DNA of 64,000 nt, from the NCBI GenBank assembly GCA_963727805.1, contig CAVSHF010000004.1, forward strand, positions 1 to 64,000, given 5' to 3'. Source of the DNA: an uncultured Nitrospiraceae bacterium (GTDB lineage Bacteria; Nitrospirota; Thermodesulfovibrionia; Thermodesulfovibrionales; Dissulfurispiraceae). This document shows, one piece after another, positions 1 through 10,060 of the stretch. Position 1 is the first letter of the stretch. The number at the start of each line of letters is the position of its first letter. The translations under genes and the position numbers were made by a program. Below the pieces are notes generated by a model, which saw only the letters and a list, made by a program, of their open reading frames with translations, was not told where the DNA came from and did not search any database.

Positions 1-113
1 GCTTGCTATATTTAAGAAGGGTAGTGATGGCCATTTAAAAAGGCTATACTCTTTCTTGATTTGGAGCCAATTGGCGAGTTGGTTAAATCCGAACCAAAGA
101 AAGGAGTATAGCC

Positions 114-1370
114 ATGAATAAGATTAAAACAAAAAAGATTAAAGTAGTCAACGGACAAACCCTGATCGTGAGTGTTGATATGAGCAAAGACAAACATTTT
201 GGGTACTGGCGCTGTCCGGACGGAACCGATGTGAAGCCTTTTGCTTTCTGGAACAACGGCGGTGGTTTTCAAGAGTTCTGGAACCAAGTGTTGCATGCCA
301 AGAATCTCTATAATCTTGATAACATTGTGTTTGGATACGAATCTACTGGTTCGTTCGCAGAGCCTTTGGTGCATTTCATGCGCGCAAGAGGAGTTCATAT
401 GGTACAGGTTAACCCTATGCACACTAAGAGGGTGAAGGATTTGCAGGGCAATTCGCCGAATAAGACCGATCAGAAAGACCCGAAGGTCATTGCCGATATC
501 ATGGCTCTCGGCCACGCCCTGACAGTTGTGATACCGGAAGGTCCGGCTGCAGAGCTTCGGAGGCTCACACAGGCCAGGGAGAGGAGCAATGAGCGTTTTG
601 TGGCTTCAGTGAATCAACTCCACAGTCTGGTTGCGATCGTCTTCCCGGAATTCTTGCATGTCATGAAGGATATGAAAATATTAAGCTCCCGATATCTACT
701 TAAGCAGTGTCCGGCACCAAAGGATATTGTCGAGTATGGTCTTGATAATTTGACCAACACACTCAGAAAGATAAGCCGTGGAAAACTCAAGGAAGACCGT
801 GCTAAGGCCCTCTTTGAGGCTGCCCAAACATCTGTGGGCGTGACTGAAGGCATGGCAAGCATTATCCGTGAGATGCGAGAGCTTCTTGTTATCATGGATG
901 CAGCTGAGTCCTTTACCGAGAGTCTGGAAAAAGAGATGGCCTATTACCTGAAACAGATCCCATACAGTGATTCGATCCTGTCGATCAAGGGTATCAAGGA
1001 GGTCACAGCTGCCGGTCTTATTGGTGAGGTTGGTGATTTTCGTAAGTTTAGAACCCTCTCAGAGATTCTGAAGCTCGCTGGCCTGGACCTGTATGAGATC
1101 AGTTCGGGTAAACATCAGGGAAAACGGCGCATATCCAAGCGAGGCCGCCCACTTCTGCGTAAACTCTTGTTCTTTGCCGCACTCAATGCAGTTCGCCGAG
1201 GAGGAATAATGCATCATCCATATCAACAGTACCTCCAGCGTGGAATGCCCAAGATCAAAGCTTTGATCGCCGTTGCAAGGAAACTTCTTGGAATCATATT
1301 CGCCATCGTGCGTGATCAAAGCGTGTACAGAAAAGACTTCTCAATAACATTGTTACAGGAGGCCGCATAA
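114..1370 (+). CDS. IS110 family transposase/recombinase
   Basis: N-terminal DEDD RuvC-like motifs (VSVDMSK, YESTG, KTDQKD) and C-terminal motifs (SIKGI, AGLD, SSGK, ISKRGRPLLR, AVARKL). SD AAGGAG upstream. Confidence 0.95.
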   Translation: MNKIKTKKIKVVNGQTLIVSVDMSKDKHFGYWRCPDGTDVKPFAFWNNGGGFQEFWNQVLHAKNLYNLDNIVFGYESTGSFAEPLVHFMRARGVHMVQVNPMHTKRVKDLQGNSPNKTDQKDPKVIADIMALGHALTVVIPEGPAAELRRLTQARERSNERFVASVNQLHSLVAIVFPEFLHVMKDMKILSSRYLLKQCPAPKDIVEYGLDNLTNTLRKISRGKLKEDRAKALFEAAQTSVGVTEGMASIIREMRELLVIMDAAESFTESLEKEMAYYLKQIPYSDSILSIKGIKEVTAAGLIGEVGDFRKFRTLSEILKLAGLDLYEISSGKHQGKRRISKRGRPLLRKLLFFAALNAVRRGGIMHHPYQQYLQRGMPKIKALIAVARKLLGIIFAIVRDQSVYRKDFSITLLQEAA

Positions 1371-1390
1371 GTCATACTTTGGCGCATAGG

Positions 1391-1540
1391 GCGGGGAGAT
1401 TATCATCACAGACCCAAAGGCGGCTGAGCCGACCCTCATTCGTAGCATGCATAACTCCCCGCTTGCATCTTAGTCTCAATGAAGCAAGGTTAGGGCTCTG
1501 TAGAGACCCTCAAATCACCAGTGTTGGGCAAGGTGCTACA
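1391..1540 (+). ncRNA. Putative bridge/seek RNA of IS110 #1
   Basis: Two parallel stem-internal-loop-stem modules. The loops carry sequences matching the right flank (TCACAGAC) and the donor junction (AGCAAG, ACCAG). Confidence 0.7.
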
Positions 1541-1626
1541 TCAATTAAGCATAAGGAACATATAATGCGATATCCAATAAGTTCCCATAGAAGGGGAAGG
1601 TAAAGTACTTGACAATAATAAACCAG

Positions 1627-2890
1627 TCTGTGAGTGGACAGTCAGCATCTTTTGAGCCGCTGTAGTAATCAAAATGCGATACCCACGGTACACGTCAGTT
1701 TGAAGATATGCTCCCATGCTTTATCATCACACTCTACTGAACAACAGCCGATACATATTCTTGCTGGTTCTTTAAGACGTACCGAATCCTGTTTAACAGT
1801 TTCCTGGCAATTCGGACGATTGCATTGGTCTTCGGCATCTTCTTGCACAGTGTATGAAAAGTCATCAGCAGAGCTGGGTCTTTGCGTACCGCCACCCAGG
1901 AGCTCTCAATCAATATGCCACGAAGCTGAGCATTCCGTCTGTTGGTTATGCCGGTTTTCCGTTCCGTTTCCCCACTAGAATCCGTATCAGGAATAAGTCC
2001 GACGTAACTGCAAAGTTTGTCGAAATTCTTGAAACGACTGAGTTCATACAGTTCCGTAAGTAGTATCATGGCGGTCAGAGTACTAATCCCCGGCACGGTC
2101 TTCAGCAGGCGGACATTCTGCCGGTACTCATCCGAGTTGGCAAGGTTACGGATGCCACGGGTAATATCAGCAATTAGCTTCCGCATGTTATTGAGTTCCT
2201 CCAAATGAACTTTCAATGCAAAATTGCCGCTGGCCCGTTCCATCCTTATATCTTCAATCCACGTAATGAAGCGCTTGGACCAGTTACCGTTTGCCAGTTC
2301 TTCCGGTATTTGGATTCCGTAGAAATGCAATATAGACTTGATCTGGTTCTTACAGCGCGTCTGTTTCTTGACCATACTTTGTCGAGTTCTGATAAGGCTA
2401 CGGTCTTCCACCTTGGGACGGGAAGGAACATATATGCCCTCGATCTCTCCGCTTCGGAGACTTCTTGCCAGCTTGCGGCAGTCCACTCGGTCGGTTTTCT
2501 TTGTTCGCTCCTTGTCCTTTGTAGGCACATCGGCCGGATTGACTACAAGACACTGTACCCCATGTTCTTGCAGTCGATCGTGAATCCAGAAACCACAGTA
2601 GCCGGCTTCATAGACCGATTTGTATGACGCACCAGGAAAATTGCGTTTGAGATAATTCACCAATGTGTCCACCTCAGGGGGCTGCGTAAAGGTCTTATGT
2701 TCAAACGCATCCGTAAAAATACTAACGCTCCAACTCTTCTTGTGAACATCCATGCCGACATAAATCTGTTGACCCTTAAAATTAAGTTTGCTAATCTTAT
2801 TCATGACAAGTCCTCCTTCTTTCGGTTTGTTGATTCTCTCCAGATACAACATATCCGATCGGGGGACTTGTCTTCTACTTTTTAATCATA
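1627..2890 (-). mobile_element. IS110-family element #2, 3' non-coding region truncated by element #1
   Basis: TATGAT -10 box at its left end (2890-2885). Only about 107 nt of 3' non-coding sequence remain before element #1, with no terminal -35. Confidence 0.65.
1734..2804 (-). CDS. IS110 family transposase
   Basis: YVGMDVHK, YEAG, KTDRVD, TVPGIS, YVGLIP..SSGE, IARKL motifs. ATG at 2804 follows an AGGAGG SD. Confidence 0.95.
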   Translation of the reverse strand: MNKISKLNFKGQQIYVGMDVHKKSWSVSIFTDAFEHKTFTQPPEVDTLVNYLKRNFPGASYKSVYEAGYCGFWIHDRLQEHGVQCLVVNPADVPTKDKERTKKTDRVDCRKLARSLRSGEIEGIYVPSRPKVEDRSLIRTRQSMVKKQTRCKNQIKSILHFYGIQIPEELANGNWSKRFITWIEDIRMERASGNFALKVHLEELNNMRKLIADITRGIRNLANSDEYRQNVRLLKTVPGISTLTAMILLTELYELSRFKNFDKLCSYVGLIPDTDSSGETERKTGITNRRNAQLRGILIESSWVAVRKDPALLMTFHTLCKKMPKTNAIVRIARKLLNRIRYVLKNQQEYVSAVVQ

Positions 2891-3234
2891 GGGTCTGTGA
2901 GAACATGCTGGCCGTATATAGAGAAAATTCTATTAAGCAAAATGTTTGTTACGTGCAGCTAAGCTCTAGTTTGCTTGATCAACTTTTCTCTATAAACTGC
3001 CCGCATGTTCTCTTAGTAATTATTTCGAAAAGGTATCCTGAATACACTGAAGTATATAAGTGGTAATCATCGGGGTTCGCTCAAAATTCGACAAGAAGAC
3101 CGCAATTACAAGCCGTCAGCCAAATGAGGATTACTCGGTAAATTATCCATACGTGCATGTCTGATGATCTGCATTATGGCAAACTGCCTCCATTCATGAT
3201 ATTATTGAGTTAAACAATTCATTATGAGGTAGCT

Positions 3235-3831
3235 GTGCCGGACAATGTTGCGTTTACAAATGAGGATCTAAGAGAAGCGTTGAAAGAGATCGGGGCTTAT
3301 ATCGACGTGACGGAAGATGATCTGAAGCAGATCTATGCCCTTGCTGTTAAACATGCTGGGCAGCGACTAGCAGATGCTGTTTCAGTCGCAGAGGCCATGA
3401 CTCGAAACGTTGTTGCCGTTCGGACAGATGATAAGACCGCATCAGTCGTACGACTTCTCTCTGAGAACAGGATCAGCGGGTTGCCTGTGATCGATAATGA
3501 TGGGTTGGTTATCGGTGTCGTTTCGGAGGCAGACATACTAGGCGCGGCAGTCATGGAGAACAAAGTTACCCTCAAATATATCATCCGACGTCTTATGGGT
3601 GAGCCCAATGCCAGACAAAGAAAAGGGGATACGGTCGGGGATATTATGTCTTCGCCGGCCATTACCATCCGTGAGGAGTCAGATATTAAAGAGGCCGCCA
3701 AAATATTGTCTAAACGGAGGATCAAGCGACTCCCTGTTGTCGACAATGACGGCAGACTGATCGGCATAATCTCACGGGCAAACATCTTAACTGCCGCTCA
3801 GCAGAGATGGAAGCATTTTTCGTGCAGATGA
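3235..3831 (+). CDS. CBS-domain (Bateman pair) protein, HPP-associated type
   Basis: Two CBS repeats (ISGLPVID..VIGVVSEADI; IKRLPVVD..LIGIISRA) and an N-terminal YIDVTEDDL segment. Confidence 0.9.
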   Translation: MPDNVAFTNEDLREALKEIGAYIDVTEDDLKQIYALAVKHAGQRLADAVSVAEAMTRNVVAVRTDDKTASVVRLLSENRISGLPVIDNDGLVIGVVSEADILGAAVMENKVTLKYIIRRLMGEPNARQRKGDTVGDIMSSPAITIREESDIKEAAKILSKRRIKRLPVVDNDGRLIGIISRANILTAAQQRWKHFSCR

Positions 3832-3890
3832 AAAATGGTTCTCAAATCCCTCCATTCATATCGATGCCGGGAATCTGCTTTCCGTTCTAA
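3807..3890 (+). pseudogene. Possible N-terminal remnant of an HPP-family membrane protein gene
   Basis: MEAFFVQMKNGSQIPPFIS.. resembles the K-M-K-G..S-P-P N-terminus of HPP proteins that normally follow this CBS type. Stops after 27 codons. Confidence 0.35.
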
Positions 3891-3968
3891 GAGGTTCTTA
3901 TTCAGAGAATCGCTTCGTTTTATTTCTTTTAGGTTCGAGACGTTGCGTTACTATATTTGAACTGCCAT

Positions 3969-5195
3969 TCATTTGGGACATATGAGTCCGGGATCCAGGT
4001 ATATTATATCGGAAGTATTGTTCTTCTTATTAGCCTCTTCGATAAGATGCAAAGGGTCAACGACCGCCCTGAAAGGATGCGGAACCGCTTTAGTCATATG
4101 GGCCGGATCTTCACTGAAATAATACACGGGAATCAAGACCGTCTGCGTTCCACCCGGCGGTAACGAGTTTAATGTGGCCCCGTTCCCCCACCCGTTGCCG
4201 TGCATGTCCATAACCTGTACAAGTGTCTTGTTTGGCAAAGATGGCGATGGAGCGGTGCCGATATTTCTTACCGTCACCTCAAATATATAAATGGGCTGAT
4301 TGGGCTCGCATTTTTCACCCACCTTGAAACTGATGCGGTCAATGATGAGGTCTGGTTTGTCCACCGCTGTAGTGATTTTAATCGGCCTGCATGCGCAATC
4401 GTTAGTTTTGTTAATCTCTTTTATCTGGTCACCCGTGTTCACCATAGCGCACATATAATAATCCCCTATCGGAGTGTCTGCAGCAATAGTGTTGGTCCTG
4501 TTTAGTTTGATATCCAGTTGTTGCCCCGCCTTTAGAAACACCCGATCATGTCCCCCTTCGAGCAGTATCCCGTCCGAAGAATGAGTCGAGTCAACAGCGT
4601 TGGGGGTGGAAACCGAACAGGAATTGTCTTTCTTGAGAAGGATATCTATCGTAATATTCTTTAAGTCAAACTGACTCTGATTAGCAACATTAACTTTGAT
4701 AGAGGAGCCGAGTTCGTGACCAGGCCGAGCAGTACTTGGGCTACGCTGAATTTTTACTTTCAAACCAGGTGTTGTTTGATCGCAAGTCAGATGAAACTTA
4801 GCCGCATTTGATTCGACTTTCTCAGGATATACAATTCTTATCGCCTGCCATCCCTCGAACAAAGGGGTACTTGCATCGGCTGCCATCCAAGATCCACTGA
4901 CTTCCTTGGCCCCAGGCGTACTGAATTCAAGGGTCTCAACAGGCAACAACGTACCATCATTTCTGATGAACTTATATTGTACTTTCCCTCGCTTTTCTGA
5001 GATAATTGTCCCTCTGAAGATGATCTCGGCGGGACATATTCCCGAATATGCACTTGGCTGTGCACTCAAAGTAGCGGAAATCTGGGCATGAGCAACACGT
5101 GCTAATATTAGACAATACAAACATATCATCGCGAACATCCACAACATCTTCCTCATAGGAAAGAAACACCTCCCAAGACTATTAATGATTCTCAC
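3969..5195 (-). CDS. Secreted protein with CARDB/Ig-like domains
   Basis: Signal peptide (..VAHA-Q) and CARDB-like motifs PDLII, VTVRNIG, VVDP..IEEANKKNN. Confidence 0.75.
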   Translation of the reverse strand: MRIINSLGRCFFPMRKMLWMFAMICLYCLILARVAHAQISATLSAQPSAYSGICPAEIIFRGTIISEKRGKVQYKFIRNDGTLLPVETLEFSTPGAKEVSGSWMAADASTPLFEGWQAIRIVYPEKVESNAAKFHLTCDQTTPGLKVKIQRSPSTARPGHELGSSIKVNVANQSQFDLKNITIDILLKKDNSCSVSTPNAVDSTHSSDGILLEGGHDRVFLKAGQQLDIKLNRTNTIAADTPIGDYYMCAMVNTGDQIKEINKTNDCACRPIKITTAVDKPDLIIDRISFKVGEKCEPNQPIYIFEVTVRNIGTAPSPSLPNKTLVQVMDMHGNGWGNGATLNSLPPGGTQTVLIPVYYFSEDPAHMTKAVPHPFRAVVDPLHLIEEANKKNNTSDIIYLDPGLICPK

Positions 5196-8792: not shown

Positions 8793-8901
8793 AAGAATCC
8801 CCTTTACAAATAATTCTGGTTACATTATAATTTTATTGTGGTTTCTAGTCAAGATATTTTATGACACAATTATTAGCATTTTTAGAAAATTAAGGAGCTT
8901 T

Positions 8902-9339
8902 ATGATATCCTTTTTTAATAAGAAGCAGATCTTCGGCCTTGCCCTAGTTCTATATTTTTCCATTTATGCGGCATCACCGCTTTTTTATACTGCTGCAAAT
9001 CAAAAGTCACCCGAAGGGCTTCGTACAACAAAAACTGACTCCGCATACGGAACCGACCTGCATATTTTTCTCTATGAGCTCATCTGCTCAACTTTCGTAT
9101 CGAAGAGCAGTAAGGAGCCTTCCAAGCCAATTGCTGCAATTCTTGTCCTAAAGAAAAGAGCAGTTTTATCCGAAGACAAGGCCTCTATCCTAATCCATAT
9201 GGCAGATATGGCAATGCTGGAAGCGCGTTTGATGTTTTCAACTGATCACTCGTTTCCAATATCCATCCGTTTCGTATCTAACGCCTACGAGAATCTCCCG
9301 AGATTATTTTCAGGTCTGTCCCCGCCACGACTCGCTTGA
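8902..9339 (+). CDS. Hypothetical protein with N-terminal membrane/signal segment and C-terminal SGLSPP motif
   Basis: ATG 8902 after AAGGAG. Hydrophobic N-terminus. Ends FSGLSPPRLA, upstream of pal. Confidence 0.6.
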   Translation: MISFFNKKQIFGLALVLYFSIYAASPLFYTAANQKSPEGLRTTKTDSAYGTDLHIFLYELICSTFVSKSSKEPSKPIAAILVLKKRAVLSEDKASILIHMADMAMLEARLMFSTDHSFPISIRFVSNAYENLPRLFSGLSPPRLA

Positions 9340-9471
9340 GCAGCAAAATTCACAAACTGTAACGCATCTCTTTTTAAGAGATCCATATGTCATTTAGGAA
9401 CAATCCGGCAATTGTCATGGATATTATTCACGTCGATTGCCGGAAGTCCATGTGTCTTTTTAGGAGGTACA

Positions 9472-10014
9472 ATGAAAAAGTTTATTTTGGTTTCGATGGT
9501 AGTTGGGATAATAGCTTTCGGATGCTCTCATAAAGTTGTGCAGAGTGAAGCTCCTATGCAAAAACCGGCGCCGACAGTGGTTGAAAGCAAACCAGTTGTA
9601 GTACAAAAACCTGCACAGGTGTCGCCGCAGGAAAAAATAAATGAAAAAGAACTAGAGATGCAGCGATTGAAGAAGGAACTGCAAGCAAAGCTGAGGGATA
9701 TTCATTTTAATTTTGATAAGGCTGACCTGGACGCCAACGCGAAAACTGCGCTCAACGATCTGGCTAATATCCTTACTAAGCACCAGAAACTGAAAGTCAT
9801 GATTGAGGGCAACTGCGATGAGAGGGGCACAAGGGAGTACAACCTCGCCCTCGGCGACAAGAGGGCAAACGCTGCAAAACAATACCTGAGCGCCGCTGGC
9901 ATTCCAGCAGCACGTATTGACACTATTAGTTACGGAAAAGAAAAGCCGCTCTGCACTGAGAGCACAGAAGAGTGCTGGACAAAAAATAGAAGAGATCATT
10001 TTATCTTGAATTAA
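9472..10014 (+). CDS. pal: Peptidoglycan-associated lipoprotein (OmpA-like domain)
   Basis: Lipobox AFGC, IEGNCDERGTREYNLALGDKRA, ISYGKEKP and NRR motifs. AGGAGG SD. Confidence 0.92.
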   Translation: MKKFILVSMVVGIIAFGCSHKVVQSEAPMQKPAPTVVESKPVVVQKPAQVSPQEKINEKELEMQRLKKELQAKLRDIHFNFDKADLDANAKTALNDLANILTKHQKLKVMIEGNCDERGTREYNLALGDKRANAAKQYLSAAGIPAARIDTISYGKEKPLCTESTEECWTKNRRDHFILN

Positions 10015-10060
10015 GACCAAAGAACTGTTTTTTTGCTAATAGAAGCAGATTATTGATCAA

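Follow-up and report, generated by a model that had tools for sequence, protein, structure and literature searches.

The window analysed here, a stretch of 64,000 nucleotides, is the start of contig C4 in a source genome (G000) of 3.89 Mb and 5 contigs, and it begins with two IS110 elements, one inside the other. The locus raises the question of how one RNA-guided element came to lie within another, and of what the nine letters GTCTGTGAG, present at the insertion (1626-1634) and again at the left end of the outer element (2893-2901), have to do with it. The original prediction held that the inner (E1) and outer (E2) elements aim at the same chromosomal motif, and that E2, by encoding this motif as its own guide, made its RNA gene a decoy for E1. 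Both positions of the 9-mer were re-found, as was TCACAGACCC in the RNA of E1 (1406-1415), the exact reverse complement of 2891-2900. By themselves these matches are within chance, as window positions 1-3100 hold 28 nine-mers in two copies and 27 ten-mers whose reverse complement is also present. They are meaningful because they lie in guide slots that covary with flanking DNA across relatives. The best explanation, which we consider probable, is that E1 inserted into the predicted bridge-RNA gene of E2 with its predicted target loop programmed to that site. E1 is likely a mobile element aimed at the targeting RNA of another, rather than one of two elements sharing a chromosomal target.

Both recombinases contain the PF01548 (DEDD_Tnp_IS110) and PF02371 (Transposase_20) domains, score 196.9 and 221.3 bits against NF033542 (cut-off 140) and are 23% identical to each other, confirming two divergent IS110 elements. 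By analogy with IS621, both appear to have the D-E-D-D residues and, in the Tnp domain, a serine motif. Each element has a 2-nt core at both junctions without a larger target duplication, and the predicted RNAs have two internal loops with guides that covary with target and donor. Long non-coding regions lie 3' of the transposases (~255 nt in E1, ~280 nt in E2), as in the available description of the IS1111 group with a downstream seekRNA (ISEc11, ISKpn4, ISPst6, ISPa11; PMC11187229). E2 also resembles that group in its imperfect subterminal inverted repeats of ~13 bp. Unlike the group, E1 has only a short, imperfect subterminal repeat, below the 11-13 bp that characterize it. Similarity to the solved IS621-type proteins is weak (E about 1e-7 to 1e-8). 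Nevertheless, as far as the accessible text on IS621 and ISCro4 goes (PMC11208160, PMC11208158), E1 and E2 are like these elements in the DEDD and Tnp recombinase, the CT core, the two-loop RNA with four guides and, as predicted here, the 7+2+5 target, the handshake bases and the circle-junction promoter. In contrast to IS621/ISCro4, the RNA of E1 and E2 lies at the 3' end, the left-guide register varies by 1-2 nt across relatives, and the target of E1 is the RNA gene of another IS110, not a REP.

The inner element and its insertion point comprise the following features, by window position:

1..1624, plus strand: E1, complete IS110 element (two further full copies; ends kept in relatives)
114..1370, plus strand: E1 recombinase, 418 aa (D22, E76, D119, D122; SSG at 330-332)
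1391..1462, plus strand: predicted target-binding loop (fold; guide-flank covariation in relatives)
1391-1403 with 1451-1462, plus strand: paired arms of the target-loop stem (fold)
1405-1416, plus strand: left guide loop, TCACAGA-C, extending to TCACAGACCC (fold, covariation)
1439-1445, plus strand: right guide, TTCGT-AG (fold, covariation)
1483..1523, plus strand: predicted donor-binding loop (fits E1's own ends; conserved in relatives)
1483-1488 and 1516-1521, plus strand: left donor guide AGCAAG and right donor guide CACC-AG
1522-1523, plus strand: donor-loop handshake TG
1609..1614, plus strand: TTGACA, predicted to pair with TATATT (7-12) at 17-nt spacing across the E1 circle junction
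1625..1626, no strand: AG/CT core of the E1 insertion (C5 reads through without E1; run junctions)

In the predicted fold, the 3' end of E1 forms one loop for the target and one for the donor, and its two guide arms together read TCACAGA-CT-ACGAA. Among E1 relatives, with E1's own copies excluded, the right guide matches the element's own flank at 4.67 of 5 positions (1.68 shuffled; 12 distinct guides) and the left guide at 5.71 of 7 (3.33 shuffled; 14 distinct guides, best of three registers); none of 10,000 shuffles reached either score. These shuffle tests, and those for E2 below, treat related sequences as if independent. The core of the left guide falls at loop position 9, 10 or 11 depending on the relative, and at position 10 in the closest ones (81-82%). 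The first handshake base of the donor loop pairs with target position -1 in 22 of 27 E1-relative loci (13/18 plus 9/9), four of the 27 being copies of one element. TTGACA and TATATT are predicted to form the junction promoter of the E1 circle. A protein search of 317 genomes, the set also used for the motif searches, matched E1 in 14, with nothing above 82% outside G000; E1 was not found in the plasmids and viral contigs searched.

The outer element and the adjoining host DNA are arranged as follows:

1626..1634, minus strand: E2 right target guide CTCAC (1634-1630), core-pairing AG (1629-1628) and handshake AC (1627-1626) (covariation; handshake as defined in PMC11208158)
1635..1688, minus strand: rest of the 5' part of the E2 target-binding loop, including an inner hairpin
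1688-1677 and 1672-1664, minus strand: 5' arm of the closing stem and left target guide TTGATTA-CT
1734..2804, minus strand: E2 recombinase, open frame of 356 aa (D19, E66, D105, D108; SSG at 276-278)
2805..2894, minus strand: E2 left non-coding end with subterminal inverted repeat
2895..2901, minus strand: AG core (2896-2895) and chromosomal flank CTCAC (2901-2897) (left junctions of relatives)
2899..3085, no strand: host palindrome of 114 bp (2899-3012), with a copy of a dispersed ~75-nt repeat (17 nhmmer matches, 6 of them the seeds)

E1 is nested in the 3' non-coding end of E2, which it cuts ~110 nt past the transposase, at the 3' edge of the right target guide. Contig C5 begins with a copy of E2 that is 100% identical to window 2895-1625, lacks E1 and extends ~170 nt further, ending in the inverted repeat of E2's left end. 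The remainder of the non-coding end, which the prediction had suggested seeking, thereby lies at C5:1270-1443. The same 3' continuation is found uninterrupted in six close relatives (88-91% protein identity), and the right inverted repeat lies 262-288 nt past the transposase in 31 of 47 E2-relative loci, the others being variant, cut or interrupted. E2 does not, then, end near 1635. A reading in which the 9-mer is a target duplication flanking a short E2, with a separate element behind it, was rejected, as the relatives show the "separate" part to be the 3' half of the E2 RNA and the right end. Contigs C4 and C5 each start on the core of an element; the first letter of C4 is the G of E1's left AG core, so that no sequence upstream of this E1 can be read. 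One contig of sequencing run X5 apparently links a window-type left flank to a C5-type right flank. The C5 copy may be an E1-free allele of the window locus or an assembly path, and for this reason it is not taken as independent.

A target-loop motif was detected in 44 and a donor-loop motif in 46 of the 47 E2-relative loci, and 22 aligned relatives yield a consensus fold with two loops, with compensatory change in 9 of 25 pairs. The five bases ahead of an invariant AGAC match the left flank of each relative at 4.16 of 5 positions (1.55 shuffled; 19 distinct guides, score reached in 0 of 10,000 shuffles). With the right end placed at ...AACATAGA-AG, the left guide matches the right flank at 5.67 of 7 (3.21 shuffled; 15 distinct guides, 34 loci). 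Under this placement the circle-junction promoter would have a 17-nt spacing in 32 of 35 E2-family loci and an 18-nt spacing in the other 3, measured on predicted circles with the left part assumed where it was not found. A right core 3 nt further in was rejected, the left-guide test in fixed register having failed (1.92/7 vs 1.53; 716 of 10,000 shuffles), although it passed with a flexible register. Because both guides match the flanks at the corrected right end, we assign TTGATTA-CT-GTGAG as the target of E2; it sits in the dispersed host repeat, which carries E2-type target sites. Several empty copies of this ~75-nt repeat have 3 extra bases behind the AG core, and one E2 subclade has CC at one junction in place of the usual core. 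The RNA regions have no significant Rfam family at gathering score, and the one sub-threshold match lies on the host palindrome.

According to the available account of IS621 (PMC11208158), donor positions 6-7 pair with the two bases that follow the right target guide. In E2 these two bases are AC and match the first two bases of the element. GTCTGTGAG consists of E2's guide, core and handshake, and E2's RNA gene therefore carries an inherent copy of the element's left junction. The placement of E1 in the predicted guide-RNA region of E2 stands as first proposed, with the insertion separating the handshake bases of the gene from the 3' arm of the stem that closes the loop. The second copy of the 9-mer, which had been read as left flank throughout, is flank only at 2897-2901 (5 nt); 2895-2896 are the AG core and 2893-2894 the first 2 nt of E2.

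Other rearrangements were observed among E2 relatives. At L039, a second, transposase-free bridge-RNA module follows directly behind an E2 relative (after position 3568), reminiscent of MITEPpu9, and at L059 an E2 relative is arranged in tandem, a short stretch being deleted where the units meet. L046 has a 447-aa ORF, presumably IS256-like, inserted just behind the donor guide. A 299-letter insert splits the right target guide of another relative (L004:1259-1266; X2, X5, X6); two of the runs contain it and the third has a loose end that fits, and it is possibly a non-autonomous IS110 module.

A scan of G000 with the CT core fixed returned a single perfect match to TCACAGA-CT-ACGAA in 3.89 Mb, and this is the E2 RNA gene (C5:1263); one further site has one mismatch and 10 have two. 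About 0.03 perfect 14-mers are expected by chance (arithmetic with equal base frequencies). Window positions 1633-1627 are the left target arm of E1 as well as part of E2's guide, core and handshake. The E2 target loop is closed by a stem whose 3' arm, ACGAA, varies among E2 relatives, and the right arm of E1 reads this lineage's version of it. The handshake U of E1 predicts A at target position -1, and A is present at the RNA-gene site. In the +2 register, the single best genomic site is the E2 left junction (2890-2900), with 2 mismatches; in the +1 register, that of E1's closest relatives, no site in the genome is better than 2 mismatches. We note that allowing three registers raises the chance of a match, and that two of the three E1 copies have C rather than A at -1, in the +2 register, which speaks against a programmed site.

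The genome-wide flanks of E1 point away from a shared motif. All three copies in G000 lie within E2-derived sequence and are joined to the ACGAA stem arm, and none is in the host repeat alone; for the window copy the arm lies past the contig start and was inferred from C5 and run X1. The other two, C3:1103371-1101736 (99.9% identical) and C5:439721-438085 (97.5%), lie between the E2 left junction and the 3' half of the E2 RNA. These E2 shells are without E2 transposase and target loop, and both sit in E2-type target sites. Both also contain a third IS110 (457-aa open frame, RNA-like left end), located at AG in the right donor guide of E2:

G000 C3:1103445-1105052: third IS110, with the matching C5 stretch near 439795-441420

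The guide of this third element was rejected as an explanation of its site, as it matches at 5/5 in the right arm and 4/7 in the left, a poorer fit than that of 33 unoccupied sites elsewhere in the genome. In the one close relative of this element (L146, 86%), the guides are different and the location is not an E2-like RNA. The two shells show 51 alignment differences. Their third elements are identical save 2 nt at one of the junctions, and the changes in E1 and in the E2 tail are patchy. One origin of the shells and two are both compatible with these data.

Public sequencing runs X1 (perhaps the source sample), X2, X4, X5 and X6 were examined for E1 and E2 junctions. A 236-nt contig of X5, from another study, consists of 95 nt of an E2 relative (11 differences, ~88% identical) and, from the same CT onward, 141 letters opening with E1's end, 30 of them being shown. 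The same join is found in X2, where the host differs at 54 of 470 letters and E1 is over 99% identical. Only 28-30 letters lie on the E1 side of the X2 join and 27 on the E2 side of the X4 join, and with the tool's minimum of 31 only the X5 join passes. These E1 joins are among the loose ends listed, and E1 insertions at unrelated sites in the runs are possible. Uninterrupted E2 alleles are common there. In another genome of the genus (L033/L149), the same stem arm adjoins, within an E2 relative, an E1 left end of 96% identity, apparently flipped between the stem arms by an inversion. An E1-like junction occurs in only 1 of the 47 E2-family loci from other genomes. None of 38 loci of E1 relatives contains E2-like sequence (distant RNA genes might escape detection) and the guides there differ from E1's, so the programming of E1 appears to be lineage-specific.

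The 9-mer common to both places is what suggested that E1 and E2 share a chromosomal target, with the E2 RNA gene as an accidental decoy. Look-alike flanks on one side in E1 relatives (L015-L017) and E2 relatives (L034, L035) illustrate that the families can converge on similar host motifs, and true target sharing between them may occur in other lineages. The predicted target of E1, however, mismatches E2's TTGATTA-CT-GTGAG at 8/12, 10/13 and 10/14 positions in the three registers, 8 of 12 non-core positions being the best case; its right arm, ACGAA, corresponds to the E2 RNA stem and not to the chromosome; and no E1 copy in G000 occupies the host repeat in the absence of E2 sequence. A conserved chromosomal repeat containing the motif of E1 was not found in the 317 genomes: the motif pattern has 18 matches in 17 of them (control, 9 matches), of which 2 are E2-family RNA genes, the only ones at which an IS110 was found, and the others unrelated, mostly coding sites. 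This survey and the guide mismatch leave the shared-target and decoy mechanism largely refuted and, in our judgment, extremely improbable. Guide mimicry survives in part, as E2's guide and handshake copy its left junction and E1's left guide fits both; the chromosomal motif as the model does not. That the model is the end of E2 is the starting point of another reading, in which the real target of E1 is the E2 left junction, or a short E2 derivative with the junction fused to the RNA scaffold, and the intact RNA gene is struck because guide and handshake copy the junction.

The left guide of E1 indeed matches the E2 left junction at 10/10 bases, and the empty site, when reconstructed for the two shells, fits E1 perfectly in the +2 register. 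In a relic E2 left end at C5:277254 (within C5:277244-277300), 9 bases that share 8/9 positions with E1's end precede the resumption of E2 sequence and may be a scar left by E1 at the left junction, and the RNA-only module behind the right end at L039 indicates that minis exist in the E2 family. Against the junction as the target, the right arm is mismatched at 2/5 on the intact E2 left end, E1 followed by an intact E2 left end was not seen, the empty fused site was not found in G000 or in the 317 genomes, and the handshake base favours the RNA-gene register; we regard this explanation as unlikely. Even less probable is drift or chance, whereby the best leftover site of a mutated E1 guide happened to fall in E2, or one old insertion was copied as a composite. 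The identical third element in both shells, and the mostly patchy differences between them, would fit a single origin followed by recombination, and C4 and C5 are perhaps two alleles of one locus. Yet both guide arms and the handshake fit the RNA-gene site, and the same junction recurs in a host ~11% diverged though its E1 is more than 99% identical, and is present in another genome as well.

If E1 is programmed to the E2 RNA gene, as we favour, its insertion by analogy with IS621 would begin with E1 circling out and the 17-nt-spaced promoter forming at the junction. The left guide would then pair with E2's right target guide and the right guide with the 3' arm of the stem closing the E2 target loop. 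Recombination at the CT core would place 1.6 kb between this loop and the remaining RNA. The closing stem is lost when the interrupted sequence is folded. The interrupted copy is predicted no longer to make its own intact bridge RNA, with its ends and transposase left whole, and excision of E1 would restore the gene. Because a handshake-matched bridge RNA copies its own left junction, the left guide of E1 also fits the E2 left end, two bases off register. The shells may have arisen by a second E1 insertion at the E2 left junction and recombination between the E1 copies, or by a half-match reaction of the kind reported in the accessible part of a study on IS621 (10.64898/2026.08.31.748434). Either route would account for two E2 shells without transposase and target loop. 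Structured RNA genes might also attract insertions, much as a target hairpin aids ISPpu10 in the available report (10.64898/2026.03.19.712850).

A more far-reaching proposal, which we put forward only tentatively and consider doubtful, is that E1 is a specialised parasite of bridge-RNA elements, using the signature of guide, core and handshake to strip E2 and ride in the shell. The signature would let E1 strike both the RNA gene and the left end, E2 would lose its transposase and target loop, and the leftover shell would keep both E2 ends and be movable in trans. With a third IS110 occupying the donor guide, and relatives having a 299-nt insert in the target guide, bridge-RNA genes would seem to be a contested niche. 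If true, such attacks would select for guide change and help to explain the diversification of IS110 targets.

IS110-family elements that target other mobile DNA are known. In the sources as available, ISEc21 inserts into the DDE codons of the IS3 family, IS4321/IS5075 target the inverted repeats of Tn21, IS1383 targets those of IS1384, and the IS1111-attC group likewise targets other mobile DNA. E1 is like all of these in its site-specific insertion into another mobile element. It differs from them in that the host is itself an IS110 and the site spans a variable target guide and RNA scaffold. Since the site covers E2's target guide, specificity depends on the host's own programming. ISPpu9/MITEPpu9 (ssr9) and ISPpu10 (PMC12288879) offer a parallel, with two IS110s per genome and non-autonomous modules moved by an IS110 transposase. 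These two share a REP target, in contrast to E1 and E2, and the available text describes no bridge-RNA-gene insertion. We found no report of an IS110 inserted in the bridge-RNA gene of another in a literature search that excluded most subscription journals, ISfinder notes and bioRxiv supplements. If E1 is so programmed, the locus provides a readable example from nature of a programmable recombinase that takes the programming device of a second one as its target, and every base of the interaction is predicted, making it testable with two plasmids. It indicates a general weak spot, in that a bridge-RNA gene copies its own junction, and offers a selective reason for guide turnover. The natural register flexibility of 1-2 nt and the guide-linked deletions are relevant to the specificity of bridge editing.

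About 18 further IS110-like matches, from several families, are present in G000. They are accompanied by at least six broken relics of the E2 family (C3:705727, 1005045-1005227, 1083469, 1096703 and 2136378; C5:277244), of which the one at C3:1083469 is interrupted by another IS110 family. Finally, a gene region of 1.15 kb is duplicated at 78% identity on both sides of the E2 locus (window 8878-10021 and C5 ~2995-4137).
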